Below, piece after piece: positions 2,460 through 25,327 of a stretch of 64,000 nt of DNA. Position 1 is the first letter of the stretch. Each line of letters opens with the position of its first letter. Both the position numbers and the translations under genes were made by a program. The DNA is from an uncultured Myxococcaceae bacterium (GTDB lineage Bacteria; Myxococcota_A; Polyangia; Polyangiales; Ga0077539), in NCBI GenBank assembly GCA_945952225.1, contig CAMFHP010000008.1, positions 1,798 to 65,797 on the forward strand, read 5' to 3'. Under the pieces are notes generated by a model. That model did not search any database and was not told the origin of the DNA. It worked only from the letters and a program-made list of their open reading frames with translations.

Positions 2460-2567
2460 CGGAGTGGTGGCGCCCACTACCACAGGCCCGCGCGACGTGG
2501 TGCGACGATCCCGAGAGATTCTTCGCGGGATGCGTTCTGGCAACCCGCGGCCGTCGCGCGCGAGGTC

Positions 2568-5105: not shown

Positions 5106-5145
5106 CCCGCAGCCACGGCGTGCGTGCTAGGGTCCGCGCCCTCCG

Positions 5146-5943: not shown

Positions 5944-6036
5944 CCCGCCGATTCTCGTCCGTACGTGCCCGCCGCGTCTGGTACGGTCCGCGCCGCCGTC
6001 GCGCCGGGGTGCCGACGTAGCCAAAGGGAGCGTTGG

Positions 6037-7986: not shown

Positions 7987-8038
7987 ATCCCCGTCCTCTC
8001 CACGTCCATTCCCCCGCACCTGACCGGGAGCGAGAGCC

Positions 8039-11000
8039 ATGTCCGACGCCGCTGAGAACACGGCGGCCTCCGAGCTCGGAGGCAGCTACGAGGTGATCCG
8101 CCGAAGGCTCATCGAGCAGGCGACCGAGCTCGGTCGGCGCGCCGAGCAGCTCAACGCGCGCCGCATCGAGGTGTTCGGCGGCAGCGACCTGAGCCTCACG
8201 GCCACGGAGCGCGTGCGCACGGAGAACAACTGCCTCCCGCGCGACATCGTCGCCGTGGGGCCGCGGCTCCTCGTGGCCTACGACGTGTTCGTGGGCATGA
8301 AGAGCGAGGTCACCGTGGCCGACGTGTTCGGCCTCCACCGCGTCGTGCGCAACGAGCAGGGCGCACCCACGCTCGAACCGCTGCCCCTCGACGACGGCGG
8401 GTTTCTCAGCGACGAGCGCTTCGTCCGCGAGTTCGGCGACCTGTTCAAGTACGTGCGCGAGGCGCGGATCCTCCAGCTCCGTCGCACCGATCACCGCCTG
8501 CTCGCGGTGTTCTCCACGGGCCCCGGCGCGCGCGATCGGAGGGTGTTCCGCTGGAGCATCGACGCCGCGGGACGCATCACGTACCTCGACGCGCGCGGCG
8601 AAGAGGACCACGTGCGCCCCCGCGCCCACGACTTCACGTGGAAGACCGCCACGCGCGAGAACCACGTGCAGGGCCGCCATCCCCACGTGTCGATCTTCGA
8701 CGAGGTCTTCGTCGAGACCATCGGCGGCGACCTCACCATCAAGGTCGAGAACAACACGGCATCGGGCCAGGGCATCTACGCCGAGCCCGTCGACGACGCG
8801 AACCAGTCGCTCGACGACGCGACGATCGGCTACGCGCGGCTCGGCGCGCTGATCCTGCTGCGCGTGAAGCCCTACCGCGAGAGCGTCACGCGGCATTTTC
8901 TCTACAACCCGCGGCGTCGTCAGGTGCTGCGCATCGACGCGTTGGAGCAGGCCTGCCTCGCGCTGCCCGAAGACCACGGCGCGATCTTCTCGACGGGCTA
9001 CTACCTCGTCACCGGCGAGCACAAGCTCTTCGACGCCGAGGGCGGGCCCATGACCTTCGAGCGCGTGCTCCGCGCGCCCAACGGCGAGGACGTGCTCTAC
9101 GTCTTCTTTCGCGAGAGCGACGGTCGCTACCTGCTCTTTCCGTACAACCTCATTCGCAAAGAGGTCGCGACGCCGATCACCTGCCACGGGTACTCGCTCT
9201 TCGACGACGGTGCGCTCATCGTCTTTCGTGCGGCGCCCGGTGAAGAGCCTCGCAGGGTGCATCCGATGCAGGTGTGGCGGACGCCCTTCGTCTCCGCGGA
9301 GGTGGCCGCGAGCGCGCCGGTGGCAGGGTCGTTCCTGGGGCGCGTGGGCAACCCCGACCTGGTGCGCGGCATCTCCGAGGCGCTCTCGCTGCGACGACTC
9401 GCGCTCGGCGAGAACCCCGATCGGCAGACCTGGGAAGACCTCATCGCCGCGTCGGGACGCATGGTCGATGCGTTCCACTGGCTCGGCCACGCGGAGTGCT
9501 TCGACCTGCTGGGTGCGCTCAAGCAGGTGCGCGCCGTCGCCGAGCAGATCGTCGACGAGTACGAGAAGGTCGTCGCGATCCGCGCGCGCGCCGCCGAGGC
9601 CCTCGCGAAGGCCGAGGGCGATCAGAAGGAGCTGCTCCGCGCGCCCGCCGATGCGTCGGAGAGTGCCGACGCGTTCATGCAGGCGCTCACGGCGCTGCGT
9701 CGTCAGCGGGGTGCCCTCGGAACGCTCCGCGAGATGCGCGCGATGAACCTCACGCGCGTCGAGGCGTTGGAGTCCGAGGTCGACGCGCGCTTCACCGAGA
9801 CGAGCCTCGCGGCGGCGACGTTCCTGTGCCGCGACGACGCGCTGCGCCCGCTCGTCGAGAAGGTCGACGCCGCGGTCGCGCAGGCCGAGAAGGTCGCGCG
9901 CTCCATCGAGCTCGCCCCCGCACAGGCCGAGGTCGACCGCGTGTACGAGGGCACCACCGTGCTCTCCGAGACCGTCGCGGGACTCCAGGTCGACGACCCC
10001 ACGGTGCGCACGCGCATCCTCGACGCGATCGGCGAGGTCTTCGGCCGCGTGAACCGCGCCCGCGCCGTGCTCCAGGGCCGCGCGAAGGAGCTCCGCGGCC
10101 ACGAGCTCCGCGCCGAGTTCGCGTCGCAGTCGAAGCTCCTCGCGCAGGCCATCCAGAGCGCGCTCGCGGTGGCCGACACGCCCGAGCGCTGCGACGCATC
10201 CCTCTCGCGCCTCGTGGTGCAGCTCGAAGCCCTCGAAGGCCGCTTCGGCGAGCTCGACGAGTTCGCCCCCGAGCTCGCATCGCGGCGCGAGGAGCTCCAC
10301 GACGCCTTCGGCGCGCGGCGCCAGACCCTCGTCGACGAGCGGCAGAAGCGCGCGGCGAACCTCATGGCCGCGGCGGAGCGCATCCTCCAGGGTGTCGAAC
10401 GCCGCGTGCGCGCGATCCCCTCGCCCGAGGAGCTTCACGCGTACTTCGCGGGCGATCCGATGGTGGCGCGGGCCCGCGAGCTCGTGGCGCAGCTCCGCGC
10501 GCTCGGCGACGCGGTGAAGGCCGACGAGATCGAGGGACGCATCAAGTCCGCGCGTCAGGAGGGCACGCGCGCGCTCCGCGACCGCAGCGATCTGTTCGAC
10601 GGCGCCGACAACGTCATCCGCTTCGGCCAGCACCGCTTCTTCGTCAACACGCAGCCCCTCGAACTCGCGATCGTTCCCCGTGACGGCGCCCTCGCGCTGC
10701 ACCTCACGGGCACGGATTTCTACGAGCCCCTCGAAGACCCGCGCCTCGACGAGGCCCGCGATCTCTGGGCGCAGACGCTCCCCGGCGAGTGCGAGACCGT
10801 GTACCGCGCGGAGTTCCTCGCGGCGTGTGTGCTCCGCGACGCCGAGCGCAACGAGCGCGGCCTCTCGATCGAGACGCTCCGTCAGGAGTCGCTCAAGTCC
10901 GACGGGCTCCTCGCGCTCGTGCGAACGTGGTCCGCGGAGCGCCACGACGAGGGCTACGAGCGCGGCGTGCACGACGTCGATGCTGCGGCCATTCTCGGCG

Positions 11001-13738
11001 CGCTGCTTCCCGTGCTCACCGCGGCGGGCACGCTCCGTCACCAGGGCGACGCGCGCTCCCTCGGAGTGCTCCACGCGGCGACGCTCGACGAGCCCGCCCG
11101 CACCCTCCTCGCGCGGCGTGCCCGCTCGGCCCGCAGGCTCCGCGCGCACATCGGATCGAGCGCCGCGCGCGACGAGCTGGTCGACGAGCTCGTGCCCGCG
11201 CTCGACGCCTCCGCGAAGCTCTGGCGCACCGCCTCTCACGAAGGTCTTCGCCGTCGCGCCGCGCAGTACATCGTCGACGAGCTCGGCGCCGACAGCGCGC
11301 GCTGGGTGCTCTCGTCCGAGGCCACCGCGCTGCGCCTCGCGTTCCTCAAGGTGCTCACGGAGCAGGGCACGCGGTCGGCCTTCGAAGACGACCTGCGCGC
11401 GCTGGAGAAGCTCCCCGCCGAGCGCCTCGCCCTCGCCACGCGCTGGCTCGAAGCCTTCGCGCAGAAGGCGCCCGAGCACACGCGCGCGGTCGCCGAGTGT
11501 GCGGCCTCGATGGTGGTCGACCGACGCATCGAGCGAGAGCCCTCCACGGTGTCGCTCGACGTGAAGATCGAGGGACTCTTCGGTCAGCACCCGCGCGTGC
11601 AGAACCGCACGCTCGCGCTGCGGCTCGATGAGTTTCTCGCGCGCACCGACGAGATGATCGACGTGCGCCTGCCGCGATGGCGCGCGTACCGAAAGGCCCG
11701 CGCCGAGGTGGCCGAACGCGAGCGCCGTCGACTGCGCCTCGATGAGTTCACCGCGCGCGTGCTCACGAGCTTCGTGCGCAACGGACTGATCGACGAGGTG
11801 TACCTCCCGCTCGTGGGGCAGAACCTCGCGAAGCAGCTCGGCGCCGCGGGCGATGGCAAGCGCACCGACCTCATGGGCCTGCTGCTCCTCGTGTCGCCGC
11901 CGGGCTACGGCAAGACCACGCTGATGGAGTACGTCGCGAGTCGGCTGGGGCTCGTGTTCGTGAAGGTGAACGGCCCGTCGCTGGGACACGCCGTGGTGAG
12001 CCTCGACCCCTCGGAGGCGCCCAACGCCACCGCGCGCCAGGAGGTCGAGAAGATCAACCTGGCCTTCGAGATGGGCAACAACGTGATGCTCTACCTCGAC
12101 GACATCCAACACACGAACGCGGAGCTGCTCCAGAAGTTCATCTCGCTCTGCGACGGGTCGCGTCGCATCGAGGGCGTGTGGCGCGGCCGCACGCGCACCT
12201 ACGACCTTCGCGGCAAGCGCTTCTGCATCGTGATGGCGGGCAATCCGTACACCGAGTCGGGCGCGCGCTTTCGCATCCCCGACATGCTCGCGAACCGCGC
12301 GGACACCTACAACCTCGGCGACATTCTCGGCGGCCGCGACGACGTGTTCGCGCGCTCGTACGTCGAGAACGCGCTCACCTCGAACGCCACGCTCGCGCCC
12401 CTCGCGGGTCGTGACCCCGCAGACCTCCGCAAGCTCCTTCGCATCGCCGAGGGTGAGAGCCTCGCGCCCTCGGAGCTCGCGCACCCGTACAGCGCCGCCG
12501 AGGTGGGAGAGATCACCGCGGTGCTCCGGGGCATGCTCCGCGCGCGCAACACGCTGCTCGCGGTGAACGCCGAGTACATCCGCAGCGCCTCGCAGGAAGA
12601 TGCGTTCCGCACCGAGCCGCCCTTCAAGCTCCAGGGCAGCTACCGCAACATGAACAAGGTCGCCGAGAAGATCGTCGCGGCGCACACCGACGACGAGGTC
12701 GAGGCCCTCGTGAGCGACCACTACACCAGCGAGAGCCAGACGCTCACGACGGGCGCAGAGCAGAACCTCCTGAAGCTCGCCGAGCTCCGCGGACGACTCA
12801 CCGACGCGCAGCGCGCCCGCTGGGATGCGATCAAGAAGGAATACCTCCGTCAGAAACGCGTCGGCGGCCGCGACGACGACCCCGTGGCGCGCGTCACGGG
12901 CACGCTCTCGACGCTCGGCGAGGAGCTCGAACGGCTGCGCACCGACCTCGTGAAGGCCGCGTCTTCTCGCGAGGGAGAGCGCACCGTGGCCGCGCAGCTC
13001 ACGCCCCACCTCGACGCGCTCGCGAAGGCCCTCGCCTCGGTGTCGCGCCCCACGCTCGACGTGAGGCTCCCGACGCCCGATCCCCGCGCGCAGGCCGACG
13101 CGCTCGCGCTCGCGCTGCGCAACGCCTCGGCCGACCTCGCGCCCGTGGCCCGCGCCGCACAGCACGGCCTCGGCACGCTCCCCGCGCTCCTCGAGTCGCT
13201 CGTGTCGGTGCTCACCCGCATGGAGCAGCGCCTCGCCGACGCGCCCGTCCCCGTGGCCACGGTCGCCCCCGCGTTGCCCGCGCAGCCCGCCTCCGTGGCC
13301 CGTGCGTCGGTTCCCTCGCCGGCCCCCTCCCCGACCCCTGCGCCGCGCGCGGCGACGCCCGCAAGGCCCCTCTCCGCGCTGCCCGACACCATGGCCGCCG
13401 TGCCCGGTGCGATGCGCTTCGAAGCCACCCTCGACGCGGCGAGCGCCTCGCATCTCTGGGTGCCCCGCGGCGCCGACACCGATGTGCTCCGCGACGGCGG
13501 GGTCTACGTGCAGACCCATCGCGCGCTCCCGCCGCTTGGCGGGCTCGTCTCGCTCGTGATCGACCTCGCGGGTGCGGGACGCTTCGAGGTGCCCGCGCAG
13601 GTGATGTTCGTCCGCGAGGCCGCCCTCGATGTGCCCGATCCGGGCTTCGGCGCGCGGCTCACGCAGCTCCCGCCGGAGCTCGAACGTGCGCTCCGTCGCT
13701 ACGTGATCGAACGTGACCCCGTGCAGGTGCGACGGTGA
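8039..13738 (+). CDS. giant (1,899 aa) single-AAA+ ATPase with C-terminal PilZ-like domain; function unknown
   Basis: Walker A 'SPPGYGKTT' (11894-11920) and Walker B 'VMLYLDD' (12083-12103). 'VMAGNPYTESGARFRIPDMLANRAD' resembles the MoxR/AAA_5-type sensor region. About 1,280 aa of non-ATPase sequence (beta-rich, then long helical) precede the ATPase. A Pro/Ala linker leads to a PilZ-like tail (13412-13735). Confidence 0.85.
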   Translation: MSDAAENTAASELGGSYEVIRRRLIEQATELGRRAEQLNARRIEVFGGSDLSLTATERVRTENNCLPRDIVAVGPRLLVAYDVFVGMKSEVTVADVFGLHRVVRNEQGAPTLEPLPLDDGGFLSDERFVREFGDLFKYVREARILQLRRTDHRLLAVFSTGPGARDRRVFRWSIDAAGRITYLDARGEEDHVRPRAHDFTWKTATRENHVQGRHPHVSIFDEVFVETIGGDLTIKVENNTASGQGIYAEPVDDANQSLDDATIGYARLGALILLRVKPYRESVTRHFLYNPRRRQVLRIDALEQACLALPEDHGAIFSTGYYLVTGEHKLFDAEGGPMTFERVLRAPNGEDVLYVFFRESDGRYLLFPYNLIRKEVATPITCHGYSLFDDGALIVFRAAPGEEPRRVHPMQVWRTPFVSAEVAASAPVAGSFLGRVGNPDLVRGISEALSLRRLALGENPDRQTWEDLIAASGRMVDAFHWLGHAECFDLLGALKQVRAVAEQIVDEYEKVVAIRARAAEALAKAEGDQKELLRAPADASESADAFMQALTALRRQRGALGTLREMRAMNLTRVEALESEVDARFTETSLAAATFLCRDDALRPLVEKVDAAVAQAEKVARSIELAPAQAEVDRVYEGTTVLSETVAGLQVDDPTVRTRILDAIGEVFGRVNRARAVLQGRAKELRGHELRAEFASQSKLLAQAIQSALAVADTPERCDASLSRLVVQLEALEGRFGELDEFAPELASRREELHDAFGARRQTLVDERQKRAANLMAAAERILQGVERRVRAIPSPEELHAYFAGDPMVARARELVAQLRALGDAVKADEIEGRIKSARQEGTRALRDRSDLFDGADNVIRFGQHRFFVNTQPLELAIVPRDGALALHLTGTDFYEPLEDPRLDEARDLWAQTLPGECETVYRAEFLAACVLRDAERNERGLSIETLRQESLKSDGLLALVRTWSAERHDEGYERGVHDVDAAAILGALLPVLTAAGTLRHQGDARSLGVLHAATLDEPARTLLARRARSARRLRAHIGSSAARDELVDELVPALDASAKLWRTASHEGLRRRAAQYIVDELGADSARWVLSSEATALRLAFLKVLTEQGTRSAFEDDLRALEKLPAERLALATRWLEAFAQKAPEHTRAVAECAASMVVDRRIEREPSTVSLDVKIEGLFGQHPRVQNRTLALRLDEFLARTDEMIDVRLPRWRAYRKARAEVAERERRRLRLDEFTARVLTSFVRNGLIDEVYLPLVGQNLAKQLGAAGDGKRTDLMGLLLLVSPPGYGKTTLMEYVASRLGLVFVKVNGPSLGHAVVSLDPSEAPNATARQEVEKINLAFEMGNNVMLYLDDIQHTNAELLQKFISLCDGSRRIEGVWRGRTRTYDLRGKRFCIVMAGNPYTESGARFRIPDMLANRADTYNLGDILGGRDDVFARSYVENALTSNATLAPLAGRDPADLRKLLRIAEGESLAPSELAHPYSAAEVGEITAVLRGMLRARNTLLAVNAEYIRSASQEDAFRTEPPFKLQGSYRNMNKVAEKIVAAHTDDEVEALVSDHYTSESQTLTTGAEQNLLKLAELRGRLTDAQRARWDAIKKEYLRQKRVGGRDDDPVARVTGTLSTLGEELERLRTDLVKAASSREGERTVAAQLTPHLDALAKALASVSRPTLDVRLPTPDPRAQADALALALRNASADLAPVARAAQHGLGTLPALLESLVSVLTRMEQRLADAPVPVATVAPALPAQPASVARASVPSPAPSPTPAPRAATPARPLSALPDTMAAVPGAMRFEATLDAASASHLWVPRGADTDVLRDGGVYVQTHRALPPLGGLVSLVIDLAGAGRFEVPAQVMFVREAALDVPDPGFGARLTQLPPELERALRRYVIERDPVQVRR

Positions 13739-14511
13739 GCGCAGCCCGTCTCGTCACGGTCGCTGTCGTGCTGGTGGCGTGCGCGGCGCGTCCTGCGTCG
13801 GTGCTCCCCGACGTCTCGCACACCGAGCTCACGTCGCGCGCCGTGCAGGTCACGCCCGATCTCACGGTGCGTCCGCTGGCGCCCGGCGTGTTGCGCCACA
13901 CCTCGTGGCGCGTGCTGCCCGACGTGGGGCGCTTTCCCTCGAACGGCCTTGTTCTCCTGGGCCCGCATGAGGCCATCGTGGTCGACACCGCGTGGGGTGC
14001 GGAGCTCACGGAGGCGCTCTTCACCCACATCGAGCGCGACCTGCACCGACGCATCACGCACCTCGTGGTGACGCACTCGCACGACGACCGCATCGGCGGC
14101 ATTCGCGAGGCGCTGCGTCGTCACGTCGCCGTGCACGCGCTCACCCTCACCGCCACGCGTGCGACGGCCGAAGGGCTCCCGCCACCCACCGACCCCTTCG
14201 AACGCGAGACCGCCGTCGACGCCGATGGAATGCGCGTGGAGGTCTTCTTCCCCGGCGCCGCCCATGCCCCCGACAACGTGGTCGTGTGGGTCCCCTCGCA
14301 GCGCATCCTCTTCGGCACGTGCATGGTGCGCTCGGCCGACGCGCGCTCCCTCGGCAACCTCGCCGACGCGTCCGTCGCCACGTGGGCTGCATCGGTGCGC
14401 GCGGTGATGGCCCGCTATCCGTCACCCGCCATCGTCGTGCCGGGCCACGGCGAACCCGGCGACGCCTCGCTCCTCACGCACACGCTCGACCTCGTGGCCG
14501 TGGGACGCTGA
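13735..14511 (+). CDS. subclass B1 metallo-beta-lactamase, lipoprotein
   Basis: The GTG start overlaps the upstream TGA (GTGA). Lipobox 'VLVAC'. All six B1 zinc ligands are present: 'THSHDDRIGG' (H116/H118/D120), 'PGAAHAPDN' (H196), 'FGTCMV' (C221), 'VVPGHG' (H263). 'SLGNLADA' closely resembles the NDM/VIM region. Confidence 0.85.
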   Translation: MSAARLVTVAVVLVACAARPASVLPDVSHTELTSRAVQVTPDLTVRPLAPGVLRHTSWRVLPDVGRFPSNGLVLLGPHEAIVVDTAWGAELTEALFTHIERDLHRRITHLVVTHSHDDRIGGIREALRRHVAVHALTLTATRATAEGLPPPTDPFERETAVDADGMRVEVFFPGAAHAPDNVVVWVPSQRILFGTCMVRSADARSLGNLADASVATWAASVRAVMARYPSPAIVVPGHGEPGDASLLTHTLDLVAVGR

Positions 14512-14515
14512 CCCG

Positions 14516-15073
14516 TCACCCGCCGCAACGCGCGAGGCACACGCCGCTGCAGCATCGCATTCCGCCGCAGCTCACGCCGCACGCGCCGCAGTTCGCGGTG
14601 TTCGCCTGCGTGTCGACGCACGCCCCGTTGCAGAGCTGCCGCGCGCCCTCGCAACCGCACGCGCCGCTGCGACACACGAGGCCCGACTCGCAGCGGTTCA
14701 AGCACCGACCGCAGTTGGAGCTCGACTCCGTGAGGTCGACCTCACACCCGTCGCTCGCGCGGCCGTTGCAGTCGGCCCATCCCTGCTCGCACTCGCACGC
14801 GCCCGCGTTGCAGACCTGGTGGTCGCCGCACGCGCAGACCCGCGCGTCGCTCCCCGTGTCGACCGACGCATCGCGGCCCGTGTCGGGCGCGCTGTCACGC
14901 GAGACCACGTCGGGCGTCGACACGTCGGGCGCGGGCGCGTCCATCGGGGCCATCGCGTCGGGCACGGAGAGATCCGTGCGATCGAAGTCGAGCGCGACCG
15001 TGCACCCGCCGAGCGCGTGCGCCACGACCGTCACCACTCCCCACCGGGACCACAGGCTGCGCACCGTCGCCAT
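14516..15073 (-). CDS. Cys-rich lipoprotein
   Basis: Start chosen at 'MATVRSLW'. Lipobox 'ALGGC', an Asp/Pro/Ala spacer, then repeated 'C.C....C..G.C.C' and 'NCG.CG..C' motifs typical of myxobacterial Cys-rich repeats. Confidence 0.65.
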   Translation of the reverse strand: MATVRSLWSRWGVVTVVAHALGGCTVALDFDRTDLSVPDAMAPMDAPAPDVSTPDVVSRDSAPDTGRDASVDTGSDARVCACGDHQVCNAGACECEQGWADCNGRASDGCEVDLTESSSNCGRCLNRCESGLVCRSGACGCEGARQLCNGACVDTQANTANCGACGVSCGGMRCCSGVCLARCGG

Positions 15074-15229
15074 GAGCCGTCCTCCGTCGACGCCCGCACC
15101 GGCAGACGCACCCGCCAAGGTACCGGATCGCGCGCGCCTGCAAAGCGGCACCTTTGCACACGCGAAGCGCGCAACGTTCTCACACCCGCGACGTGGCGCG
15201 GCGTGGCCGTTTCGCCGTGCGCCGCACGA

Positions 15230-15664
15230 TCACCAGGCCGACACGCCCATGGCCTCGGCAATCCGCGCAGCGTCGTCGCGCGACACCTCGAAGTGCCCGC
15301 GTCGCGCGAGCATTCCCCACCCTGCGTCGCGCGTGAACGAGAGCGCCGCACGCAGCGCCGCGAGCGGAACCTCCCTCGCCTCCGCGCACCAGCGCACGTC
15401 GCGACGAAAGGGCGTGAACCCGCCGCCCATGTCGACCTGCACCACGGGTCCGTCGCCGACGCGACCGAGGGCCGTGAACGCCTGCAGCGCGTCGCCGCCG
15501 TTCATCTCCGTGCGCGGCGAGTAGACGATGAAGCCGTCGCCCGCGGCCATGCGCACGAGCGGCGCGCGCTTGCCGTGGCACACCTGCGTGAAGCCGCCCG
15601 CCACTCCGCGCATCACGTGACTGCGCGAGATCACCCCGATCCAGAACCGCGTCGTGTCGTTCAT
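15230..15664 (-). CDS. EVE (PUA-like) domain protein
   Basis: 144 aa. 'FWIGVISRSHV...GFTQVCHGKRAPLVRMAAGDGFIVYSP' matches the EVE/UPF0310 N-terminal pattern. Confidence 0.75.
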   Translation of the reverse strand: MNDTTRFWIGVISRSHVMRGVAGGFTQVCHGKRAPLVRMAAGDGFIVYSPRTEMNGGDALQAFTALGRVGDGPVVQVDMGGGFTPFRRDVRWCAEAREVPLAALRAALSFTRDAGWGMLARRGHFEVSRDDAARIAEAMGVSAW

Positions 15665-15712
15665 GCGCCGACCGTAGCGTCCGCGCGCTGACAGCCGACT
15701 GTCAGGGTTGTG

Positions 15713-16201
15713 TCAGCCTTTCGGCGCGCCCTGTCGTTCGAGCACGGCGAGGATCTTGTCGAGGCGATCGGCGATGCGCCGCTGCGTCTCCTGCGCGTCG
15801 CGGGCCTCGGCCTCGCGCTCGGCGGCCGGCGCGTCGAAGAGCTTCGCGGCGAGCGAGGGCCCCACGGTGTTGAGCCACGACGCGATGACCTTGCCGCGCT
15901 CGGACCGCGCGAAGGTGTCGGCGTAGCCCACGGAGAGGCTCGTGGTCACGAACACCAGCGCGTCGGCGAAGGTGCGCACCTTGGGGTTCACGCCGCGCTC
16001 GCACTGCCAGAAGAGGTACGCGGCCGAGAGCACGGTGACCGCCGTCGCGTCGAGGGGATCGCGCGCCACGAGCTCGCGCGCCTGCTTCTTCACCGCGGGC
16101 CACGGCCCCCCCGCGTCGGGGTCGCCGAGGGCGTTCATCGCGAGGCCCGCGAGGGCGGTGAGGGCCTTGAGGTTCACGGCGCGACGGGGCGTGGTGCTCA
16201 T
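15713..16201 (-). CDS. small 2-TM ion-channel-like protein (K+ channel pore with non-canonical filter)
   Basis: TM, then pore helix and filter-like 'FVTTSLSVGYADTF', then TM and a charged helical tail. Starts 12 nt after the upstream hydroxylase gene stop. Confidence 0.55.
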   Translation of the reverse strand: MSTTPRRAVNLKALTALAGLAMNALGDPDAGGPWPAVKKQARELVARDPLDATAVTVLSAAYLFWQCERGVNPKVRTFADALVFVTTSLSVGYADTFARSERGKVIASWLNTVGPSLAAKLFDAPAAEREAEARDAQETQRRIADRLDKILAVLERQGAPKG

Positions 16202-16213
16202 CGGGCGCCGAGC

Positions 16214-17356
16214 CTACCGCGCGGCGTACGCGGCGCCAGCGACGATCGAGAGCGCGAACGAGACCCACCAGAGGCCCTGCGAGACCGACGCCCACGCGCG
16301 CGCTTCGAGGAGCCCGCCCACGTTCGCGAGTCCCCACACCGAGAGCGTCGCGGCCGCGAGGTTCACCGCATCGGCCCCCACAGGGCGTTGCAGCACGACC
16401 ACCGAGAGCAGCATCGCGAGCGCGAACACCACCACCGCGTGGAGCGTCGTCGCGCGCGCAGCGGTCACGTCGTAGCGGGGTGCGCCGCGGCGCGCGTCGG
16501 CCATCGCGTTGAGGTCTTCGGCGGGCCATCCGGGCGGCTGCCATCCGGGGCCGCGCACGAGCACCTGGGCGGCGGTCGCGAGGCCCTCGGCGCGGGCCAT
16601 CTTGGCGAGGAGCTTTGCGCCGTACTGGAGGTGCACCCACACGGGGTTCCAGCTCGCGACGGGCTCGATGGTGCCGTAGGTGGGCGACTGCGATTCGGCG
16701 GTGAAGGTGCCGAAGAGGCGATCCCAGACGATGAAGACGCCCGCGTAGTTGCGATCGAGGTAGGCGGGGTCGACGCCGTGGTGCACGCGGTGATGCGACG
16801 GGGTGTTGAAGACTGCTTCGAGGGGCGCGGGCAGGCGGTCGATGAGCTTCGTGTGGATCCAGAACTGGTAGACGATGACCACGCCGTAGGCCGACGCGAA
16901 CACCGACGGCGGCACGCCCATCAGCGCGAGCGGAAGCTGAAACCACAGGGAGAACAGGGGCTGCCACGCGTCCTGACGGAGCGCGACGGAGAGGTTGTAG
17001 TCCTCGCTCTGGTGGTGCACGACGTGGCTGAACCAGCCCACCGCCGACTCGTGGCTCCAGCGATGGAACCAGTAGTAGAAGAAGTCCGCGGCGACGAAGG
17101 CCACGAGCCACGCGACGACGGGATGCGCCGCGAACCAGTCGGTGGCCCGCGCATGGTCGTAGAGCCAGTGGTAGGGCGCTTCGAGGGGCACCGTGAGCAG
17201 CGCCACGAGGAGCTGCTGGTACGCGCCGCACGCGAGGTTCGTGAGCGCGTCGTTCAGGCGGTAGAGACCGAGGTTTCTGCGCCGATCCCACCACCACTCG
17301 GCGCCCATGAAGACGAAGTACATCGGCACCGCGAGCACGATGGGGTCGACCGCCAT
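16214..17356 (-). CDS. fatty-acid hydroxylase superfamily protein (sterol desaturase family; alkylglycerol-monooxygenase-like)
   Basis: Histidine boxes 'HRWSHE', 'HVVHHQSEDYNLSVALRQ' and 'HHRVHHG'. Polytopic membrane protein with an extra C-terminal TM region. Confidence 0.85.
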   Translation of the reverse strand: MAVDPIVLAVPMYFVFMGAEWWWDRRRNLGLYRLNDALTNLACGAYQQLLVALLTVPLEAPYHWLYDHARATDWFAAHPVVAWLVAFVAADFFYYWFHRWSHESAVGWFSHVVHHQSEDYNLSVALRQDAWQPLFSLWFQLPLALMGVPPSVFASAYGVVIVYQFWIHTKLIDRLPAPLEAVFNTPSHHRVHHGVDPAYLDRNYAGVFIVWDRLFGTFTAESQSPTYGTIEPVASWNPVWVHLQYGAKLLAKMARAEGLATAAQVLVRGPGWQPPGWPAEDLNAMADARRGAPRYDVTAARATTLHAVVVFALAMLLSVVVLQRPVGADAVNLAAATLSVWGLANVGGLLEARAWASVSQGLWWVSFALSIVAGAAYAAR

Positions 17357-17404
17357 GGGCGCGGATCATCGCACCCGACACGTGCCCCGCGGTAGCCTCG
17401 CGCA

Positions 17405-17695
17405 ATGGCACGCACCCCACTCACCGACGACGCACTCCGCGAGGCGCTCGCCGCGCTCCCGCGATGGGAGGGCGACGGACGCTCGATCCGCGCGACGTAC
17501 CACTTCTCGACCTACGAAGCGGGCGTCGCCTTCGCGATGCAATGCGCCCTCGTCGCGCAGCGCATGGACCACCACCCCGAGCTGCTCATCGGCTGGCAGC
17601 ACGTGACCGTGACCTTCACCACCCACGACGCCGGCGGCGTCACCGCGCGCGACCTCGACGGAGCCCGCGCCGTCGACGCCATCGCCGCGGCCTGA
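17405..17695 (+). CDS. phhB: pterin-4-alpha-carbinolamine dehydratase
   Basis: 96 aa. 'L..W.......I...Y.F..Y..GVAFAMQCALVAQRMDHHPELLIGWQHVTVTFTTH' is the PCD/DCoH signature. Confidence 0.85.
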   Translation: MARTPLTDDALREALAALPRWEGDGRSIRATYHFSTYEAGVAFAMQCALVAQRMDHHPELLIGWQHVTVTFTTHDAGGVTARDLDGARAVDAIAAA

Positions 17696-17716
17696 ACCGA
17701 CCGCCCGTCGCAGCGC

Positions 17717-19684
17717 TCAGGGCACGCGCCCGAAGCCCGTCCCGTTCCATCGCCAGCTCACACGCCGCGTCGGCTCCCACGGGAGCAGCAGCGCCTCGAA
17801 GCCCTGCGGCGGCGCGTCGTGAAAGGGGTACGTGCTCTGGGTCCATCCGCGCGCGGGCCGCGATTGCACGGTGATCGTGTCGCCCTGCGCGCCCTCGGGG
17901 AGCACGAGCTCGTTGACCACGGCCTCGTCGCCCACACGACGCGCGACCTCGACGGCGAAGAGTCGCCCGCGGTGCGCCGGGTCGAAGCTGTAGACGAAGG
18001 CCATGTCGCGCAGCGAGGTGTTGGCCTGCCCCTGCACCTGAAGCGTCACCGAGCGACGCACGGTCACCACCGCTTCGGCCTTGCCGTCGCGGGTCACGTC
18101 GGCGGCGCGCAGGCCCACCACGGTGTCTCCGGGGTTCGCAGGCAACGAGATGCTCGCGTAGGAGCGACCGCCCATGAAGCCCGTGCCCACGACCACGAGC
18201 GTGCGTCCGTACACGTAGAGCTGCTCGCGCGTGGCGTCTTCGGCCACGTCGGCGTTCACACGAAACTCCGGCCGCGCGCCCGCCGCGAGGTGCTCGCGCT
18301 CTGCGAAGAGACGCAGCACACCGGCCACGTCGGCGCCGGGCTCCACGGGCTCGCGCGGGGGCTCCTGGGTCGGCGCGCTCGGTGCGGAAACGCCTGCGGG
18401 CATGGGCATCGCGACGTTCTCCGCGGGGCCGAACGACTGCGCGGATGCGTCCCAGACGAAGCTCCGCGCGCGCACACCGCCCCAGGGCGTGAGCGGCGCG
18501 TCGACGCCGTCCTCGGTGGCCGCGGGCCAGGTCTGCGCGGTGAATCCCTGCGACGGACCGACGGTGATCGTGAGGCGTCCGGCGGTGAAGGCCACGGTGT
18601 TGCGCACCTCGTTGGCCCCGTCGCGGCGCCCGATCTCGTGGGCGAACACGCGCTGGAACCCGCCGTCGTCGCCGACGCGAAACACCTGGTAGACCGAGCG
18701 TTCGAGGGGAGCGCCCGGTGCGCGCACGGTCACGCCCACGAGCGCGGTGCGAGCGCGCGGCGGGGTGAGCACCTCGGCGCGCTCCACGGTGGCGCCGTCG
18801 AAGGAGAGGAACGCGTACGACGCGCCGCCCGCGATGCCAGGGCCCCACACGACGAGGTGGTGGGGCAACGCGGCGAGGCGCTCGGGGGCTGCGTCGCCCG
18901 CGAGGTTGACCTGCCGTTCGAGGAGCGGTCGCACCGACGCGTCGACGTGGTGCTCGCTACGAAAGCGTGCGAAGAGATCCACCGCAGCGGCGGCGACGGC
19001 GGGCGCCGAGGTCACCGTGGGCGGCAGCTCCTGCGGGCGACGCGCGTCACCGGGACCGTTCGCGAGCACGGTCTCGGTGCTGGGGCGCGCCTCGACGTCG
19101 CTGTCTTCGTAGGCCACGCGAATGCGCGCGCTCGCGAGGTTCTCGCGCAGCCCCGGCATCGCCGCCCACGGAATGCGCGCTTCGAAGGTGTACCCGCCGC
19201 GCGAAGGGGCTTCGACGATCACGGCGCCGGGCACTGCGCGCGACGAGGGCACGCGGTAGCGCACCGCACCGGGAAAGGTCCCGGGCTCGCCGGGCTGGAG
19301 CCCGATCTCCCACGCGGTCCAGAGACGCCCGCGCGGAAAGGCCACGGTGAGCACCACGGTGTCGTCGGCGGGTCGATGCGCACGCGAGCGCACCACGCGG
19401 TCGTCGCGCACCTCCGCGGCGATCCAGAGGCCCTCGTTGTCGCGCCCCACGGCGAACCCGAGGGAGGCGTCGTCGGGCCCCTGCCACGCGCCGATTCCGT
19501 CGATGACCTGCGCGCGGGTGTCGAGGGCCGCGAGCGCGCCGGACCACTCGCGGGGCACGCCGTCGAGGGTCACACGCGCGGCGGCGCGGTCGATCACATC
19601 GACGAGCGGATCGGCCTGAACAACGGCAGACGCGGTGATCAGAGCGAGGGCGAAGGCGGGTGCGTGGGCGCGCGGCGGAGTCAT
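17717..19684 (-). CDS. secreted protein with N-terminal CBM9/DOMON-like domain
   Basis: Start chosen at 'MTPPRAHAPAFALALITASAVVQA' (signal peptide). 'LDGVPREW...GLWIAAEVRDD...FEARIPW' resembles carbohydrate-binding family 9. The remainder is unknown. Confidence 0.7.
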   Translation of the reverse strand: MTPPRAHAPAFALALITASAVVQADPLVDVIDRAAARVTLDGVPREWSGALAALDTRAQVIDGIGAWQGPDDASLGFAVGRDNEGLWIAAEVRDDRVVRSRAHRPADDTVVLTVAFPRGRLWTAWEIGLQPGEPGTFPGAVRYRVPSSRAVPGAVIVEAPSRGGYTFEARIPWAAMPGLRENLASARIRVAYEDSDVEARPSTETVLANGPGDARRPQELPPTVTSAPAVAAAAVDLFARFRSEHHVDASVRPLLERQVNLAGDAAPERLAALPHHLVVWGPGIAGGASYAFLSFDGATVERAEVLTPPRARTALVGVTVRAPGAPLERSVYQVFRVGDDGGFQRVFAHEIGRRDGANEVRNTVAFTAGRLTITVGPSQGFTAQTWPAATEDGVDAPLTPWGGVRARSFVWDASAQSFGPAENVAMPMPAGVSAPSAPTQEPPREPVEPGADVAGVLRLFAEREHLAAGARPEFRVNADVAEDATREQLYVYGRTLVVVGTGFMGGRSYASISLPANPGDTVVGLRAADVTRDGKAEAVVTVRRSVTLQVQGQANTSLRDMAFVYSFDPAHRGRLFAVEVARRVGDEAVVNELVLPEGAQGDTITVQSRPARGWTQSTYPFHDAPPQGFEALLLPWEPTRRVSWRWNGTGFGRVP

Positions 19685-19794
19685 CGGGCGCGCGAGGATA
19701 CCCAACGTGTCCCGCGCGGCGAACGTGGGACGCGCGCGCCGTGTGGGTTGAACGAAACCGCGAAGCCGTGGTAGTCGCTCGCCCCCGAATCTAT

Positions 19795-21429
19795 ATGTTC
19801 GACTCGCTCACCAAGGGTTTCCGCGCCGCCCGCCAACGCCTCACCGGCATGGCGGAACTCTCCGAAGACGTCATCGACCAGGCGCTCCGCGATGTGCGGG
19901 TGTCGCTGCTCGAGGCCGACGTCGAGCTCGGGGTGGTCAAGCGCTTCCTCGCGCGCGTTCGCGAGAAGATGCTCGGTCGCGTGGTGCAGGTGCGCGCCGA
20001 GCACCAGGGCAAGAAGCTCAACATCGCGCCCGAGCAGATCTTCGTGAAGGCCTGCGAAGAAGAGCTCACGGCCATGATGGCCGACAACGACCCCGAGCCC
20101 CTGCGCGAGGCGCCGAAGGGCAACCCCACCGTGGTGATGATGGTGGGCCTCCAGGGGCAGGGAAAGACCACGACGAGCGCCAAGCTCGCGCGGCTCTACG
20201 CGAAGGAGGGCAAGAAGGTGCTCCTCGTCGCGGCGGACCTTCAGCGCCCCGCGGCCGTCGAGCAGCTCACGGTGCTGGGCAACAAGATCAACGTGCCGGT
20301 GTTCAGCGTGCCCGGCGCGACGCCCGTCGAGGTGTGCCGCCGCGCGGTCGCCGTGGCGCGCGTGCAGAAGAAGGACCTGGTCATCCTCGACACGGCCGGT
20401 CGCCTCGCGATCGACACGACGCTCATGGGCGAGCTGCAGGCCATCAAAGACGAGACGAAGCCGCAGAACATCCTGCTCGTGGTGAACGCGGCCATCGGGC
20501 AGAACGCCCTCGCGACGGCGCAGGCCTTTCACGAGACGCTGGGGCTCACGGGCGTGGCGCTCACGATGCTCGACGGCGATGCGCGCGGCGGCGCGGCGCT
20601 CTCGATCCGTGAGGTCACGGGCGTGCCGATCAAGTTCGCGGGCATGGGCGAGACCGTCGAGCAGCTCGAAGCGTTTCGCCCCGACGGCATGGCGTCGCGC
20701 ATCCTCGGGATGGGCGACATCATCGGCATCGTCAACGACTTCAACCGCGTCGTGACCGACACGAAGAAGGTCGAAGAAGACGCCCAGCGGATGCTCCAGG
20801 GCAACTTCACCTTCGACGACTTCGTGCAGCAGATCTCGATGATCCAGCAGATGGGTCCGCTGAAGGAGCTGTTCGAGAAGATGCCCTTCTTCTCCGAGAT
20901 GCTCCCGCAGGACGTGAACATCGACGACCGCGAGCTCGACCGCGTGAAGGCCATGATCGCGTCGATGACCGCGCAGGAGCGCCGCGACCCCGACGTCTTC
21001 AAGAACCAGCAGGGCCGCGTGCAGCGCGTGGCGAAGGGCTCGGGACGCAAGCCCGAAGACGTCGCCGAGCTCATCGCCAAGTTCATGATGATGCGCGAGA
21101 TGATGGGCGGCATCGGCAAGCAGGCGGGCTTCCTCTCGAAGCTCCCCGGCGCGAAGCAGCTCGCGATGGCGCGGCGCCTGCGCGAGATGGTGCGCGTGCA
21201 GGGCGAGAACGCGGCGATGTCGACGCTCATGCAGGAGATGCTCGAAGCGGCCGTGGCAGGCAACGGCGCACCGGGCGGTCCCGGCGGCATGGGCGACCCC
21301 ATGGGCTTCATGAACTCGCTGCTCGGGGGCGGCGGGGCGGGCGGCGCGAACCGCGGCGGTCAGCCCGGCATGCGCCAGCGCGACGTGCGTCGGCAGCAGC
21401 GCCTCGCGAAGAAGAAGACCCGGAAGTAA
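19795..21429 (+). CDS. ffh: signal recognition particle protein Ffh
   Basis: 'MFDSLTKGF', 'GLQGQGKTTT', 'DTAGRL', 'TMLDGDARGGAALS', a Met-rich M domain and a basic tail. Confidence 0.95.
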   Translation: MFDSLTKGFRAARQRLTGMAELSEDVIDQALRDVRVSLLEADVELGVVKRFLARVREKMLGRVVQVRAEHQGKKLNIAPEQIFVKACEEELTAMMADNDPEPLREAPKGNPTVVMMVGLQGQGKTTTSAKLARLYAKEGKKVLLVAADLQRPAAVEQLTVLGNKINVPVFSVPGATPVEVCRRAVAVARVQKKDLVILDTAGRLAIDTTLMGELQAIKDETKPQNILLVVNAAIGQNALATAQAFHETLGLTGVALTMLDGDARGGAALSIREVTGVPIKFAGMGETVEQLEAFRPDGMASRILGMGDIIGIVNDFNRVVTDTKKVEEDAQRMLQGNFTFDDFVQQISMIQQMGPLKELFEKMPFFSEMLPQDVNIDDRELDRVKAMIASMTAQERRDPDVFKNQQGRVQRVAKGSGRKPEDVAELIAKFMMMREMMGGIGKQAGFLSKLPGAKQLAMARRLREMVRVQGENAAMSTLMQEMLEAAVAGNGAPGGPGGMGDPMGFMNSLLGGGGAGGANRGGQPGMRQRDVRRQQRLAKKKTRK

Positions 21430-21498
21430 CGGCCGCCACGCGCGCCGAGAGACTCCACAAGAACCTTTACGTGTGAATGGTCATTCAGAGGGGATGAG

Positions 21499-22944
21499 AT
21501 GAAGAACGCAGCCCGATGGATCGTGTGCCTCGCGCTCGGTGCGGGGTGTGTCGAACAGCCCGCCGCGAACCGCGCCGGGGTGTCTTCGCAGGAGCTGGAG
21601 CAGGTGCGCCGTCGCGTGGCGCGCCGCACGGCCCCCACGCCGCAGCACCCGCTGAACATCAACTTCGGCGGCAACAAGGTGCAGCTCGTCGGCTACGACA
21701 TCAACGTGACCGAGCTGCGCCCCGGGCAGAGCGTGACGGTCACCTGGTGGTGGAAGTGCAACACCGCGCCGGGCGACGGCTGGCACCTCTTCACGCACCT
21801 CGACGACGCGAACCGTCCGCGTACGAACCAGGACAACGTGGGCGAGGTGCGCCGCGCGTATCAGCCCGATCGCTGGCGCGCGGGTGAGTACATCGCCGAC
21901 ACGCAGACCTTCGACCTCCCGGCGGACTGGGATTCCCCCGTCGTACGCTTTCACGTCGGCCTGTGGAAGGACGCGGACCGCATGACGCCGACCCCCGCGG
22001 AGATGACCGACGGCGACCGCCGCGCGCGGGTGCTGGAGCTCCGCACGGGCGTGCAGATCCAGGTGTCGGAGATCGCCGCGCCGCGCGCCACGGGTGCGAT
22101 CAACATCGACGGCCGCCTCGACGAGCCCGCGTGGCAGGCCTCGGCGCGCACCGGCGCCCTCGTGAGCACGATGTCGGGTGATCCCCCGTCGGGCACCGAC
22201 GCGCACGCGCTGGCCCGCATCCTCTGGGACGACACGAACCTCTACCTCGCCTTCGAAGTGCAGGACGAGAACCTCGTCGACCCGTCGCAGAACCGCGACG
22301 ACCACCTCTGGGAGCACGACGCGGTCGAAGTGATGATCGACCCCGACGGCGACGGACAGAACTACTTCGAGTTCCAGGTCTCGCCCCGTGGGACGCGCTT
22401 CGACACGCGCTACGACCGCGCGCGCCAGCCGTCGACGCCGACGCCGGGCCACATCGATTTCAACCCCGAGACGCGCGCCGCGGTGGTGCTCACCACGCCT
22501 GGCACCATCGGCAACCCCGACGACAACGACACGGGCTACACCGTGGAGTTCGCGATCCCGTGGGCGTCGATCTCGACGGGCCTCGCCCACAATCCTCCGC
22601 AGGTGGGCGACAACGTGCGCCTCAACCTCTTCGTGATGGACGAAGCCAAGCAGGGCGGCCACCGCTTCGCCGCGTGGAGCGCGCCGCGCTCGGGCGACTT
22701 TCACGCGCTGGAGCGCTTCGGTCGCGTGACGCTCGTGACGGCGATCCCCGATGCGCCCATGGCGCCCGGCGTGGTCGTTCCTCCGGCCCCCGGTGCGGCC
22801 GCGCAGGGTGCCGCCGCGCAGCCCGCGAACGCGCAGCCCGCGCAGCCCGAAGGCAACCGTCGCATGGCGATCCCCGCGGTGATCAACCCCGCGGTGCTCC
22901 GCGCGGCGCCTCGCGTGGGCGCTCCCTCGGGCATCGGTCACTGA
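21499..22944 (+). CDS. lipoprotein with CBM9/DOMON-like domain
   Basis: GAGGGGA RBS and lipobox 'LGAGC'. 'IDGRLDEPAW...LWDDTNLYLAFEVQD...DAVEVMIDPDGDGQNYFEFQVSP...YTVEFAIPW' matches the CBM9-like pattern. Confidence 0.75.
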   Translation: MKNAARWIVCLALGAGCVEQPAANRAGVSSQELEQVRRRVARRTAPTPQHPLNINFGGNKVQLVGYDINVTELRPGQSVTVTWWWKCNTAPGDGWHLFTHLDDANRPRTNQDNVGEVRRAYQPDRWRAGEYIADTQTFDLPADWDSPVVRFHVGLWKDADRMTPTPAEMTDGDRRARVLELRTGVQIQVSEIAAPRATGAINIDGRLDEPAWQASARTGALVSTMSGDPPSGTDAHALARILWDDTNLYLAFEVQDENLVDPSQNRDDHLWEHDAVEVMIDPDGDGQNYFEFQVSPRGTRFDTRYDRARQPSTPTPGHIDFNPETRAAVVLTTPGTIGNPDDNDTGYTVEFAIPWASISTGLAHNPPQVGDNVRLNLFVMDEAKQGGHRFAAWSAPRSGDFHALERFGRVTLVTAIPDAPMAPGVVVPPAPGAAAQGAAAQPANAQPAQPEGNRRMAIPAVINPAVLRAAPRVGAPSGIGH

Positions 22945-23026
22945 CCGCCTCGCGCGCCGCGGGTGCCATCACGGCCCCGCGGCGAGGCTCCGTTCGCGCA
23001 TCGATCACAGCCCCGAAATGACCGAC

Positions 23027-23066
23027 GGCCCCGCGGAGATTCTCCGACGGGGCCGGTGGTGTTTTC
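23027..23066. terminator. hairpin plus T-run between convergent genes (candidate bidirectional terminator)
   Basis: GGCCCC-G-CGGAG / loop ATT / CTCCG-AC-GGGGCC (11 bp with a small internal loop), followed by GGTGGTGTTTTC on the + strand and TCATTTC on the - strand. Confidence 0.4.
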
Positions 23067-23090
23067 AGGGGACGCGCGAGGCGATGGGGC

Positions 23091-23258
23091 TCACTCGTCG
23101 TCGCTGTCGTCGTCGTCCTTGTCGTTGAAGGCGAATCCCTCGGTCTGCATCTCGGATTCGAAGTCGAGGTCGTCGAGCGACCACCCGATGCGACTCGCGC
23201 CGGGGCGGATCTCATCGCGGGCGAACTCTTCGAACGATCGGTAGTACTTCGAGCTCAT
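23091..23258 (-). CDS. small acidic protein (55 aa), below the ORF-track size cut-off
   Basis: My translation is MSSKYYRSFEEFARDEIRPGASRIGWSLDDLDFESEMQTEGFAFNDKDDDDSDDE*. There is a strong AGGAGAAG RBS 6 nt upstream of the ATG, high GC3 and a candidate promoter upstream. Confidence 0.5.
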   Translation of the reverse strand: MSSKYYRSFEEFARDEIRPGASRIGWSLDDLDFESEMQTEGFAFNDKDDDDSDDE

Positions 23259-23332
23259 GTCGGTCTTCTCCTGACGGAAGCAGTAGCCGGACGACGTCGG
23301 TGGAGCGCCTACTCACACCTACATCTGCCGCC

Positions 23333-23360
23333 AATGTATTCACGCTCCGGGGACCGTCAA
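23333..23360 (-). promoter_or_regulatory. candidate sigma-70-type promoter for the small acidic ORF
   Basis: On the minus strand: TTGACG (23355-23360), 16 nt, TACATT (23333-23338). It sits in a locally AT-richer 260-bp divergent region shared with parA. Confidence 0.25.
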
Positions 23361-23519
23361 AAATCCGCTGGACTTTCCCTGTGGGCTCGCGGTTGCGCGG
23401 TGTTTTTGTGGCGTTTTCGCAGCCGTTGCCACGGGGGGCGGGGTCGGGGTAGAGACCGTGCTCCCGTTGAGCGGGGCCCGCGGAAATCCCGCGTCGGCGA
23501 CCGTCTGGAGAGCACACGC

Positions 23520-24299
<780 letters not shown>

Positions 24300-24379
24300 C
24301 CGGCGCCGCTCCGCCTCTGCGCGCGACGCGACGCGCACCGACCGAACTCCTCCCGCACGAAGCACCGACACCCGACGCC

Positions 24380-25312
24380 ATGACCGACAAGAAGCCCAAG
24401 GTCCCCGACCCGAAGGAACCGCGCCGCGTGCTCGGCCGCGGACTCGACGCGCTGCTCCCGATCGCGCAGGTCGCGCAGGCCGCTGCGAAGCGCGCCGAGG
24501 GCCCGTACCAGATCGTCGGCATCGAGCGCGTGCACCCGCGCCACGACCAGCCCCGCAAGCGCTTCGAAGAGCAGGCCCTCGCCGACCTCGCGGCGTCGAT
24601 CCGTGAGCAGGGGATCATCCAGCCCCTCGTGGTGCGCCGTCGCGACGACGACGAGACGCAGTTCGAGATCATCGCGGGCGAGCGGCGCTGGCGCGCGTCG
24701 CAGCGGGCGGGGCTCCGCGAGGTGCCCGTGGTGGTGCGCGAGACCACCTCCGACGAGGCCTTCGAACTGGCCCTCGTCGAGAACCTCCAGCGGCAGGACC
24801 TCGACGCCGTCGAGACCGCGCAGGCGTACCAGAAGCTCCTCAAGGAGCACGGCTGGACGCAGGAAGACCTCGCCTCGCGCATCGGCAAGGACCGCTCGAC
24901 CATCTCGAACACGCTGCGCCTGCTGCACCTCCCGGGCGACGTGCTCGACCTCGTGACCGCGCAGAAGCTCACCGAGGGCCACGCGCGCGCGCTCCTCTCG
25001 GCGGAGCAGCCCGCGGAGATCACGCGCCTCGCGCATCTCGCCGTCGAGAAGGGGTGGTCGGTGCGTCAGGCCGAGGCCGCCGCGCGCCGTCGCGAGAAGC
25101 CCGCGGACAAGCCCGAGGACAAGCCCGCGACGCCCGAGCGACGGAACCCCAACGTGCTCGACCTGGAGAAGCGCCTCGCCGCGGCGCTGGGCATGCCCGT
25201 GGCCGTGCGCACCGACGCGAGCGGCAAGGCGGGCACCGTCGAGATCGCGTGGGACGACCTCGACCAGCTCGATCGCTTCATCGACCGCGTGCTCGGCGCG
25301 CCCAACGGCTGA
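24380..25312 (+). CDS. parB: chromosome partitioning protein ParB
   Basis: 'LGRGLDALLP', 'GIIQPLVVRR', 'EIIAGERRWRASQ.AGL', 'ENLQRQDL', and an HTH at 'QEDLASRIGKDRSTISNTLRLL'. Confidence 0.95.
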   Translation: MTDKKPKVPDPKEPRRVLGRGLDALLPIAQVAQAAAKRAEGPYQIVGIERVHPRHDQPRKRFEEQALADLAASIREQGIIQPLVVRRRDDDETQFEIIAGERRWRASQRAGLREVPVVVRETTSDEAFELALVENLQRQDLDAVETAQAYQKLLKEHGWTQEDLASRIGKDRSTISNTLRLLHLPGDVLDLVTAQKLTEGHARALLSAEQPAEITRLAHLAVEKGWSVRQAEAAARRREKPADKPEDKPATPERRNPNVLDLEKRLAAALGMPVAVRTDASGKAGTVEIAWDDLDQLDRFIDRVLGAPNG

Positions 25313-25327
25313 CGCGCGCCTCGCGCT

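Follow-up and report, generated by a model that had tools for sequence, protein, structure and literature searches.

Do some bacteria encode an alkylglycerol monooxygenase (AGMO/TMEM195, EC 1.14.16.5), an enzyme that reviews describe from animals only (PMC3617469), and is an enzyme that would recycle its pterin encoded beside it? The question is raised by two genes in a 64,000-nucleotide stretch (hereafter, the window) of contig CAMFHP010000008.1, part of assembly GCA_945952225.1 from an uncultured Myxococcaceae bacterium. A first-pass annotation had described a fatty-acid-hydroxylase-superfamily protein and a pterin-4a-carbinolamine dehydratase (PCD) encoded on opposite strands with starts 48 bp apart, and both the list of open reading frames (ORFs) and the Pfam matches bear this description out:

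16214–17356, minus strand: AGMO-like hydroxylase, 380 amino acids (aa); Pfam FA_hydroxylase PF04116, E 1e-26.
17357–17404: 48 bp of intergenic DNA separating the start codons of the divergent genes.
17405–17695, plus strand: PCD of the PCD/PhhB/DCoH family, 96 aa; Pfam Pterin_4a PF01329, E 7e-27.

The translated hydroxylase ORF contains the motifs HRWSHE, FHRWSHESAVGWFSHVVHHQSEDYNLSVALRQ, SHVVHHQSEDYNLSVALRQ and NTPSHHRVHHG. GC content at third codon positions (GC3) was 0.93 for the hydroxylase gene and 0.92 for the PCD gene, and since this codon-position pattern is typical of real genes in DNA of 72% GC, as in this window, we take both ORFs to be real genes. Three metagenome contigs, independent of one another and up to 128 kb long, show the two genes in the same order.

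Our comparisons place the hydroxylase close to animal AGMO. In BLASTP searches it was 36% identical to AGMO of the gibbon Nomascus (P0121) over 344 aa (E 3e-66), its residues 33–369 aligning with residues 68–402 of the 445 in AGMO. The match to human sterol C5-desaturase reached 27% over 160 aa (E 1e-10), which we take as a lead only. A human AGMO sequence was confirmed by database search, being 98% identical to the representative of the Nomascus AGMO cluster and 100% identical to a partial entry; for AGMO, database sequences were used thereafter. Other bacterial family members, from Bacteroidota and Acidobacteriota, were 37–40% identical to gibbon AGMO and 39–45% identical to the window hydroxylase. 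Animal AGMO has nine predicted transmembrane helices and a C-terminal domain (PF24858), and the window protein is colinear with it over ~340 residues, a stretch that takes in most of the C-terminal membrane domain. Both have the eight-histidine di-iron motif of FA_hydroxylase proteins, a Glu after the second His and the same additional essential residues. The window protein is nevertheless bacterial and shorter (380 versus 445 aa), missing ~35 residues at its N-terminus as well as the last transmembrane helix, and its natural pterin is not necessarily tetrahydrobiopterin.

Mutagenesis of human AGMO has identified residues that are essential for the enzyme and has shown that E137 sets the Km for tetrahydrobiopterin, which rises 18-fold in E137A; a Glu after the second His is reportedly absent from other animal fatty-acid-hydroxylase proteins (PMC3304488; PMC3617469). 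To compare these positions, we aligned the window hydroxylase by MAFFT with six AGMOs of animal origin, 13 relatives from bacteria and nine “sterol desaturase family” paralogues carried on plasmids. All 19 tabulated AGMO positions were kept in the window hydroxylase: D125; the complete eight-histidine motif (HX4H, HX2HH, HX2HH; the equivalents of H132, H136, H145, H148, H149, H221, H224 and H225); E137, which corresponds to E103 within HRWSHE; E152 and D153; and seven further essential residues, each identical (Q162, H201, D233, N235, Y236, W243 and D244). The 13 relatives, of ~400 aa, keep the same positions, with conservative or isolated replacements at 153, 233, 236 and 243. The Glu137 equivalent was invariant in the 14 aligned bacterial family members and the six animal AGMOs, as was the surrounding HxxxHE...SED motif across the 14 bacterial members, and seven short bacterial “sterol desaturase family” paralogues carried T, R, H, K, A or Q at this position.

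A neighbour-joining tree (368 columns, 300 bootstraps) placed the bacterial ~400-aa proteins in one clade with animal AGMO and with two of the plasmid proteins (78% bootstrap support), left the other seven plasmid-borne paralogues outside and recovered the bacterial ~400-aa group at 82%. Taken with the BLASTP matches and the residues, this tree, in which all outgroups are bacterial, upholds the expectation that the hydroxylase groups with AGMO and apart from non-pterin desaturases. The ornithine-lipid hydroxylase OlsE and the short (250–310 aa) plasmid-borne paralogues share the Pfam domain and the His boxes with the window protein, but they lack the C-terminal domain and mostly lack the Glu137 equivalent and an SE[DE]YNLS..LRQ block. 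These paralogues were 17–34% identical to the window protein, and a 280-aa Tsukamurella protein inside the AGMO clade was 40% identical. An AlphaFold2 (AF2) model of the window hydroxylase had a pLDDT of 82 and a pTM of 0.80, and no similar structure was found in the PDB.

Members of the family to which the protein belongs occur widely across Bacteroidota, Acidobacteriota, Gemmatimonadota and Myxococcota. Searching 5.8 billion proteins brought up hundreds of bacterial relatives of full length (~400 aa), with identities of 40–71%. Among their sources are Myxococcota, Thermoanaerobaculia, Vicinamibacteria, Acanthopleuribacter, Chitinophagales and other Bacteroidota, and species-representative genomes held at least 596 matches to the family. 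NCBI names these proteins “sterol desaturase family protein”, and JGI/IMG automatically calls many of them “alkylglycerol monooxygenase”. The earlier claim that a bacterial AGMO is undemonstrated stands insofar as our literature search found no experimental report of one; as an annotation-level idea, however, it is not new, as the JGI/IMG names attest. A further argument of the first-pass annotation, that myxobacteria make ether lipids, is weak for a family whose members were mostly found in Bacteroidota. We suggest classing the window gene as a putative bacterial addition to the known AGMO kind.

Gene neighbourhoods point to a role for this family in ether-lipid metabolism. We examined 80 loci from species-representative genomes and 80 from metagenomes, with flanks of up to 6–10 kb as the contigs allowed, together with the loci of three close relatives. 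Among the ORFs closest to the AGMO-like genes on either side, YhhN was the Pfam family met most often (20 of 128 ORFs). In a profile search, a YhhN gene lay directly downstream of the AGMO-like gene and on the same strand at 57 of the 136 loci whose downstream DNA extended to 1 kb or more (median gap 127 bp; for example, L013 10001–11867, L049 10001–11867 and L133 6001–7873, with 54 further loci), and direct Pfam checks of YhhN genes gave E values of about 1e-40 to 1e-45. All-against-all clustering of neighbours had at first missed YhhN because ORFs that overlap the hydroxylase masked the true downstream gene. The YhhN-positive genome loci with a taxon label were all from Bacteroidota (among them Pedobacter, Chryseobacterium, Flavihumibacter, Hanamia and Daejeonella); the metagenome loci are unlabelled. 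One subset of Flavobacteriales type has a GNAT (Acetyltransf_3) gene interposed between the AGMO-like gene and YhhN, which makes the gap ~690 bp:

L011, about 5780–6400: interposed GNAT gene.
L033, 11218–11757: interposed GNAT gene.
L095, L142, L053, L115 and L135: interposed GNAT gene.

YhhN proteins are lysoplasmalogenases, which cleave vinyl ethers, in rat, human (TMEM86B), Legionella and M. tuberculosis (PMC3137066; PMC9052158; PMC11994398). Animal AGMO, acting on alkyl ethers, and TMEM86A/B, acting on the vinyl ethers of lysoplasmalogens, are the two ether-bond-cleaving enzymes of animals whose homologues are tightly paired in Bacteroidota, and this pairing supports an ether-lipid role for the AGMO-like family independently of any PCD. 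Together, the two Bacteroidota genes look like a two-gene module for ether-lipid cleavage. Our literature search found no description of the AGMO–YhhN pairing, which adds more to the case for a bacterial AGMO than does the gene pair in the window.

We therefore return to the window protein with a specific reading, one that we consider evenly poised: that it is a bacterial AGMO orthologue, an integral membrane protein with di-iron bound in the eight-histidine motif and probably a tetrahydropterin-dependent ether-lipid monooxygenase. Its pterin dependence, as judged from the conserved residues, is plausible. By homology, the enzyme would use O2 and a tetrahydropterin to hydroxylate the carbon beside the ether oxygen of a 1-O-alkylglycerol-type lipid, and the hemiacetal so formed would break down, yielding the glycerol moiety and a fatty aldehyde. 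Leaving as 4a-hydroxypterin, the cofactor could then be dehydrated by the adjacent PCD to quinonoid dihydropterin for subsequent reduction by some reductase. This scheme follows animal AGMO, which oxidises tetrahydrobiopterin to a 4a-carbinolamine that PCD recycles (PMC4423366). If the window enzyme is pterin-dependent, the PCD of the cell would serve it wherever that PCD is encoded.

Its 96-aa neighbour is, on domain evidence, a genuine and canonical-looking PCD. The protein scored 93.8 bits against PF01329 (cutoff 26) and 94.3 bits against the NCBIfam equivalog NF002017 (cutoff 80), which labels it 4a-hydroxytetrahydrobiopterin dehydratase; among solved structures, its nearest relative is 3jst (E 1e-16), itself a putative PCD, and the catalytic motif HHP...W...H...D is present. 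Naponelli et al. reportedly defined in 2008 a signature of PCD activity, [EDKH]-x3-H-[HN]-[PCS]-x5,6-[YWF]-x9-[HW]-x8,15-D, and the segment QRMDHHPELLIGWQHVTVTFTTHDAGGVTARDLD fits this signature except at the first position, which is Q both here and in close homologues. The first-pass annotation had noted that no aromatic amino-acid hydroxylase is present in the window, and a Pfam survey of the window genes agrees with it: Biopterin_H/aromatic amino-acid hydroxylase genes were found neither in the window nor in the ~8–9 kb past either of its ends on the 128-kb contig, and the GTP cyclohydrolase I, PTPS, sepiapterin reductase and dihydropteridine reductase families were absent from the same range.

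Several observations weigh against this picture of an AGMO orthologue served by its neighbour, beginning with the pairing itself. The hydroxylase–PCD pair, proposed earlier as a unit, is not conserved: phmmer searches and tblastn of the flanks found a PCD beside none of the hydroxylase homologues at the 160 other loci, and none near the hydroxylases of the close relatives P0003, P0007 and P0014 (64–71% identity). PCD homologues in relatives (69–77% identity) have other neighbours, and no pterin-synthesis or pterin-reduction gene recurred beside the family in the fetched loci. Four weak downstream “PCD” matches from tblastn were rejected, their ORF encoding a GNAT acetyltransferase. The window pair resembles phhA–phhB of Pseudomonas and other bacteria in that the gene of a candidate pterin-consuming monooxygenase adjoins a PCD gene. 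It differs in three ways: the window hydroxylase is a member of an unrelated family of membrane di-iron proteins, the two genes point away from each other instead of running in the same direction, and the pairing occurs in no examined relative.

How the two genes came together can be read from a sister assembly, GCA_039809605.1, which has both genes on separate contigs, a point that we count in favour of the proposed orthologue. There, the PCD (P0250) keeps the window-type block of genes (locus L179), the 110 bp upstream of it do not encode a hydroxylase N-terminus, and the hydroxylase orthologue P0003 (71% identity) has a Ser/Thr kinase on one side and a response regulator on the other. In another relative, blocks matched by Pfam order (DUF72–GT21–(~200 aa) and PCD–(~650 aa)) are parted by one GMC oxidoreductase gene only. 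The corresponding segments of the window are as follows:

1485–17356: lineage-specific segment of ~16 kb and 11 genes, encoding a TPR protein, several unknowns, a 1899-aa DUF3686/AAA protein, a B1 metallo-beta-lactamase, a Cys-rich protein, an EVE protein, a 162-aa protein and the hydroxylase; its right edge is the hydroxylase–PCD junction.
17405–26203: block of PCD, a ~650-aa protein, ffh, a CBM9 protein, parA, parB and folD, syntenic with L179.

From the synteny with the sister assembly and the relative with a single intervening gene, we infer that the hydroxylase came to lie beside the PCD through a lineage-specific rearrangement or insertion of ~16 kb. The adjacency is thus a lineage-specific product of such an event, with no conserved operon. 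By our estimate, two given genes adjoin by chance with a frequency of ~2/N, or ~2–3 in 10,000 for ~8,000 genes; the coincidence is striking, but as the adjacency is not conserved, it provides at best weak extra evidence for functional coupling. In many bacteria the parAB partition genes lie near the chromosomal origin, and the conserved region of the PCD adjoins parAB.

Other reservations concern the protein and the carry-over of the Bacteroidota evidence. Glu at position “137” also occurs in one distant paralogue, a 410-aa Ralstonia protein, and is thus not an exclusive marker, and the outgroups of the tree are few and include no eukaryotic sterol desaturases from a database. The AGMO C-terminal domain AGMP_C (PF24858) was near threshold in some relatives (26.4 versus 28.3 bits) and had no match at E ≤ 0.01 in the window hydroxylase. 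The last transmembrane helix of close relatives and of animal AGMO is missing from this protein, whose C-terminus is ~20 residues short of its closest relatives and ~30–45 short of animal AGMO; no sign of the helix was seen in the ORF that follows the hydroxylase 12 bp on. YhhN genes are absent near the window gene and from the loci of its Myxococcota clade, and the YhhN-paired Bacteroidota proteins are only ~40% identical to the window hydroxylase. Applying the YhhN link to the window gene therefore relies on this ~40% identity and on the shared catalytic residues.

The likeliest of the alternatives, though one that we still regard as unlikely, is that the protein is an AGMO-like paralogue acting on another membrane lipid (for example, a sterol intermediate, an acyl chain or a lipid of the ornithine or sphingolipid type) with electrons from a non-pterin source, the PCD serving a phenylalanine hydroxylase elsewhere or molybdopterin metabolism and adjoining the hydroxylase by chance. 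Such an explanation fits an adjacency unique to one lineage and placed at a synteny breakpoint, as well as the lack of a recurrent pterin gene nearby. It also fits the NCBI name, which is only “sterol desaturase family protein”, and the sole NCBIfam match, a weak one to the ornithine-lipid hydroxylase OlsE (59.9 bits versus a cutoff of 475). Most family members occur in Bacteroidota, which to our knowledge are not ether-lipid producers. PCDs with no obvious hydroxylase partner are common, and Naponelli et al. reportedly linked PCDs of this sort to molybdenum cofactor metabolism in 2008. Yet the full-length similarity to AGMO is far stronger than that to other members of the superfamily, and every AGMO-specific essential residue is kept, including the pterin-linked Glu. 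The lysoplasmalogenase partner in Bacteroidota, moreover, points to ether lipids and not to sterols or ornithine lipids.

We consider it improbable that the protein cleaves alkyl ethers as AGMO does but with a reductant other than tetrahydropterin, which would make the neighbouring PCD irrelevant. Pterin-independent cleavage of alkylglycerols exists in nature (reviewed in PMC3617469); an NADPH-dependent activity has been reported from Leishmania. Conserved neighbours of the family include neither PCD nor any gene for dihydropteridine reductase or for the synthesis of pterins, and the ether-lipid link provided by YhhN is independent of any pterin link. Invariance of the Glu137 equivalent and of its surrounding motif across the aligned bacterial members argues for the tetrahydropterin instead, and the one-off adjacency to a PCD would be a notable coincidence under this alternative, given the estimated chance above.

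It is very improbable that the window copy is decaying or non-functional, as its early end and its arrival at the edge of a variable ~16-kb segment might suggest, since its frame is intact with a normal codon-position GC pattern, none of the catalytic residues has been lost, an early end is seen in another family member too (P0100), the identical sequence occurs on several contigs from different samples, and human AGMO with mutations in the distal region (D384A, R396A and C397A) keeps detectable activity (PMC3304488).

The proposal that the window protein is an AGMO orthologue can be extended to the bacterial ~400-aa AGMO-like proteins in general, which would then be genuine tetrahydropterin-dependent ether-lipid monooxygenases, with consequences for pterin enzymes, PCDs, the YhhN module and the origin of AGMO. 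We advance this wider claim tentatively, holding it with more doubt than confidence. Were it true, bacteria would possess a pterin-dependent lipid monooxygenase, and the “third class” of pterin-dependent enzymes would reach into this domain. Some “partnerless” bacterial PCDs, in organisms without an aromatic amino-acid hydroxylase, would gain a partner. The Bacteroidota AGMO-like protein and the YhhN lysoplasmalogenase would form a module that breaks both alkyl and vinyl ether lipids, and animal AGMO would have descended from the bacterial ~400-aa lineage. Confirmed bacterial orthologues would extend a recent argument for myxobacterial or bacterial roots of eukaryotic ether-lipid metabolism, made in a paper that covers biosynthesis only and does not mention AGMO (PMC13012113). 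Such orthologues would also offer tractable material for work on structure and mechanism, since AGMO is, according to reviews, so labile that no one has yet purified it in active form. The hydroxylase–PCD pair of the window itself adds little to the case for a bacterial AGMO and is better seen as a lineage-specific curiosity than as a system.

Immediate surroundings of the pair include one further gene on the hydroxylase strand:

15713–16201, minus strand: 162-aa gene, 12 bp 3′ of the hydroxylase; weak K+-channel pore-like match (Ion_trans_2, E 5e-4, below cutoff).

This gene may be co-transcribed with the hydroxylase; as a neighbour of the hydroxylase family it showed no conservation in the fetched loci. 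Within the 48-bp spacer, only the ~20 nt directly 5′ of the PCD start are shared with the region upstream of the PCD at L179. A simple scan of the spacer found no sigma-70-like promoter, and promoter, terminator and tRNA scans were uninformative.

A different divergent arrangement was seen on the Pseudomonas aeruginosa plasmid pPAMH19 (NZ_LN809998.1, L168 5099–7230), where a 408-aa AGMO-like protein with the Glu137 equivalent is encoded opposite a 230-aa short-chain dehydrogenase/reductase (SDR). The SDR was considered as a dihydropteridine reductase and not used, its best match being a FabG subfamily below cutoff and the TmpR model scoring only 100 bits.

Within the ~16-kb lineage-specific segment, the 1899-aa DUF3686/DUF7902/AAA protein (8039–13738, plus strand) is preceded by unannotated genes of ~650 aa (5965–7986) and ~265 aa (5146–5943), and an EVE-domain protein is encoded at 15230–15664; with these genes, the segment could be a variable or defence-type island. 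At 13735–14511 (plus strand) it also encodes a subclass B1 metallo-beta-lactamase (NF033088 equivalog, 242.8 bits versus 200) whose closest named families are PYX, COR and MYX, in keeping with a recent report that is said to identify Myxococcota as a main reservoir of B1 enzymes.

Elsewhere in the window, a gene at 55078–57285 (plus strand) encodes both domains of the copper type II ascorbate-dependent monooxygenases (PHM/DBH-like) and so represents a second “animal-type” monooxygenase; it is followed by a 539-aa Rieske [2Fe-2S] protein (57326–58945, plus strand), with a small HMA (heavy-metal-associated) gene called nearby. Two adjoining giant proteins of 1346 and 1387 aa (33771–41971, minus strand) have VIT and TPR domains, the second also FecR. 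Finally, the presence of a selenocysteine synthase gene, selA, at 48942–50387 (plus strand; PF03841, E 2e-126) implies that the organism uses selenoproteins.

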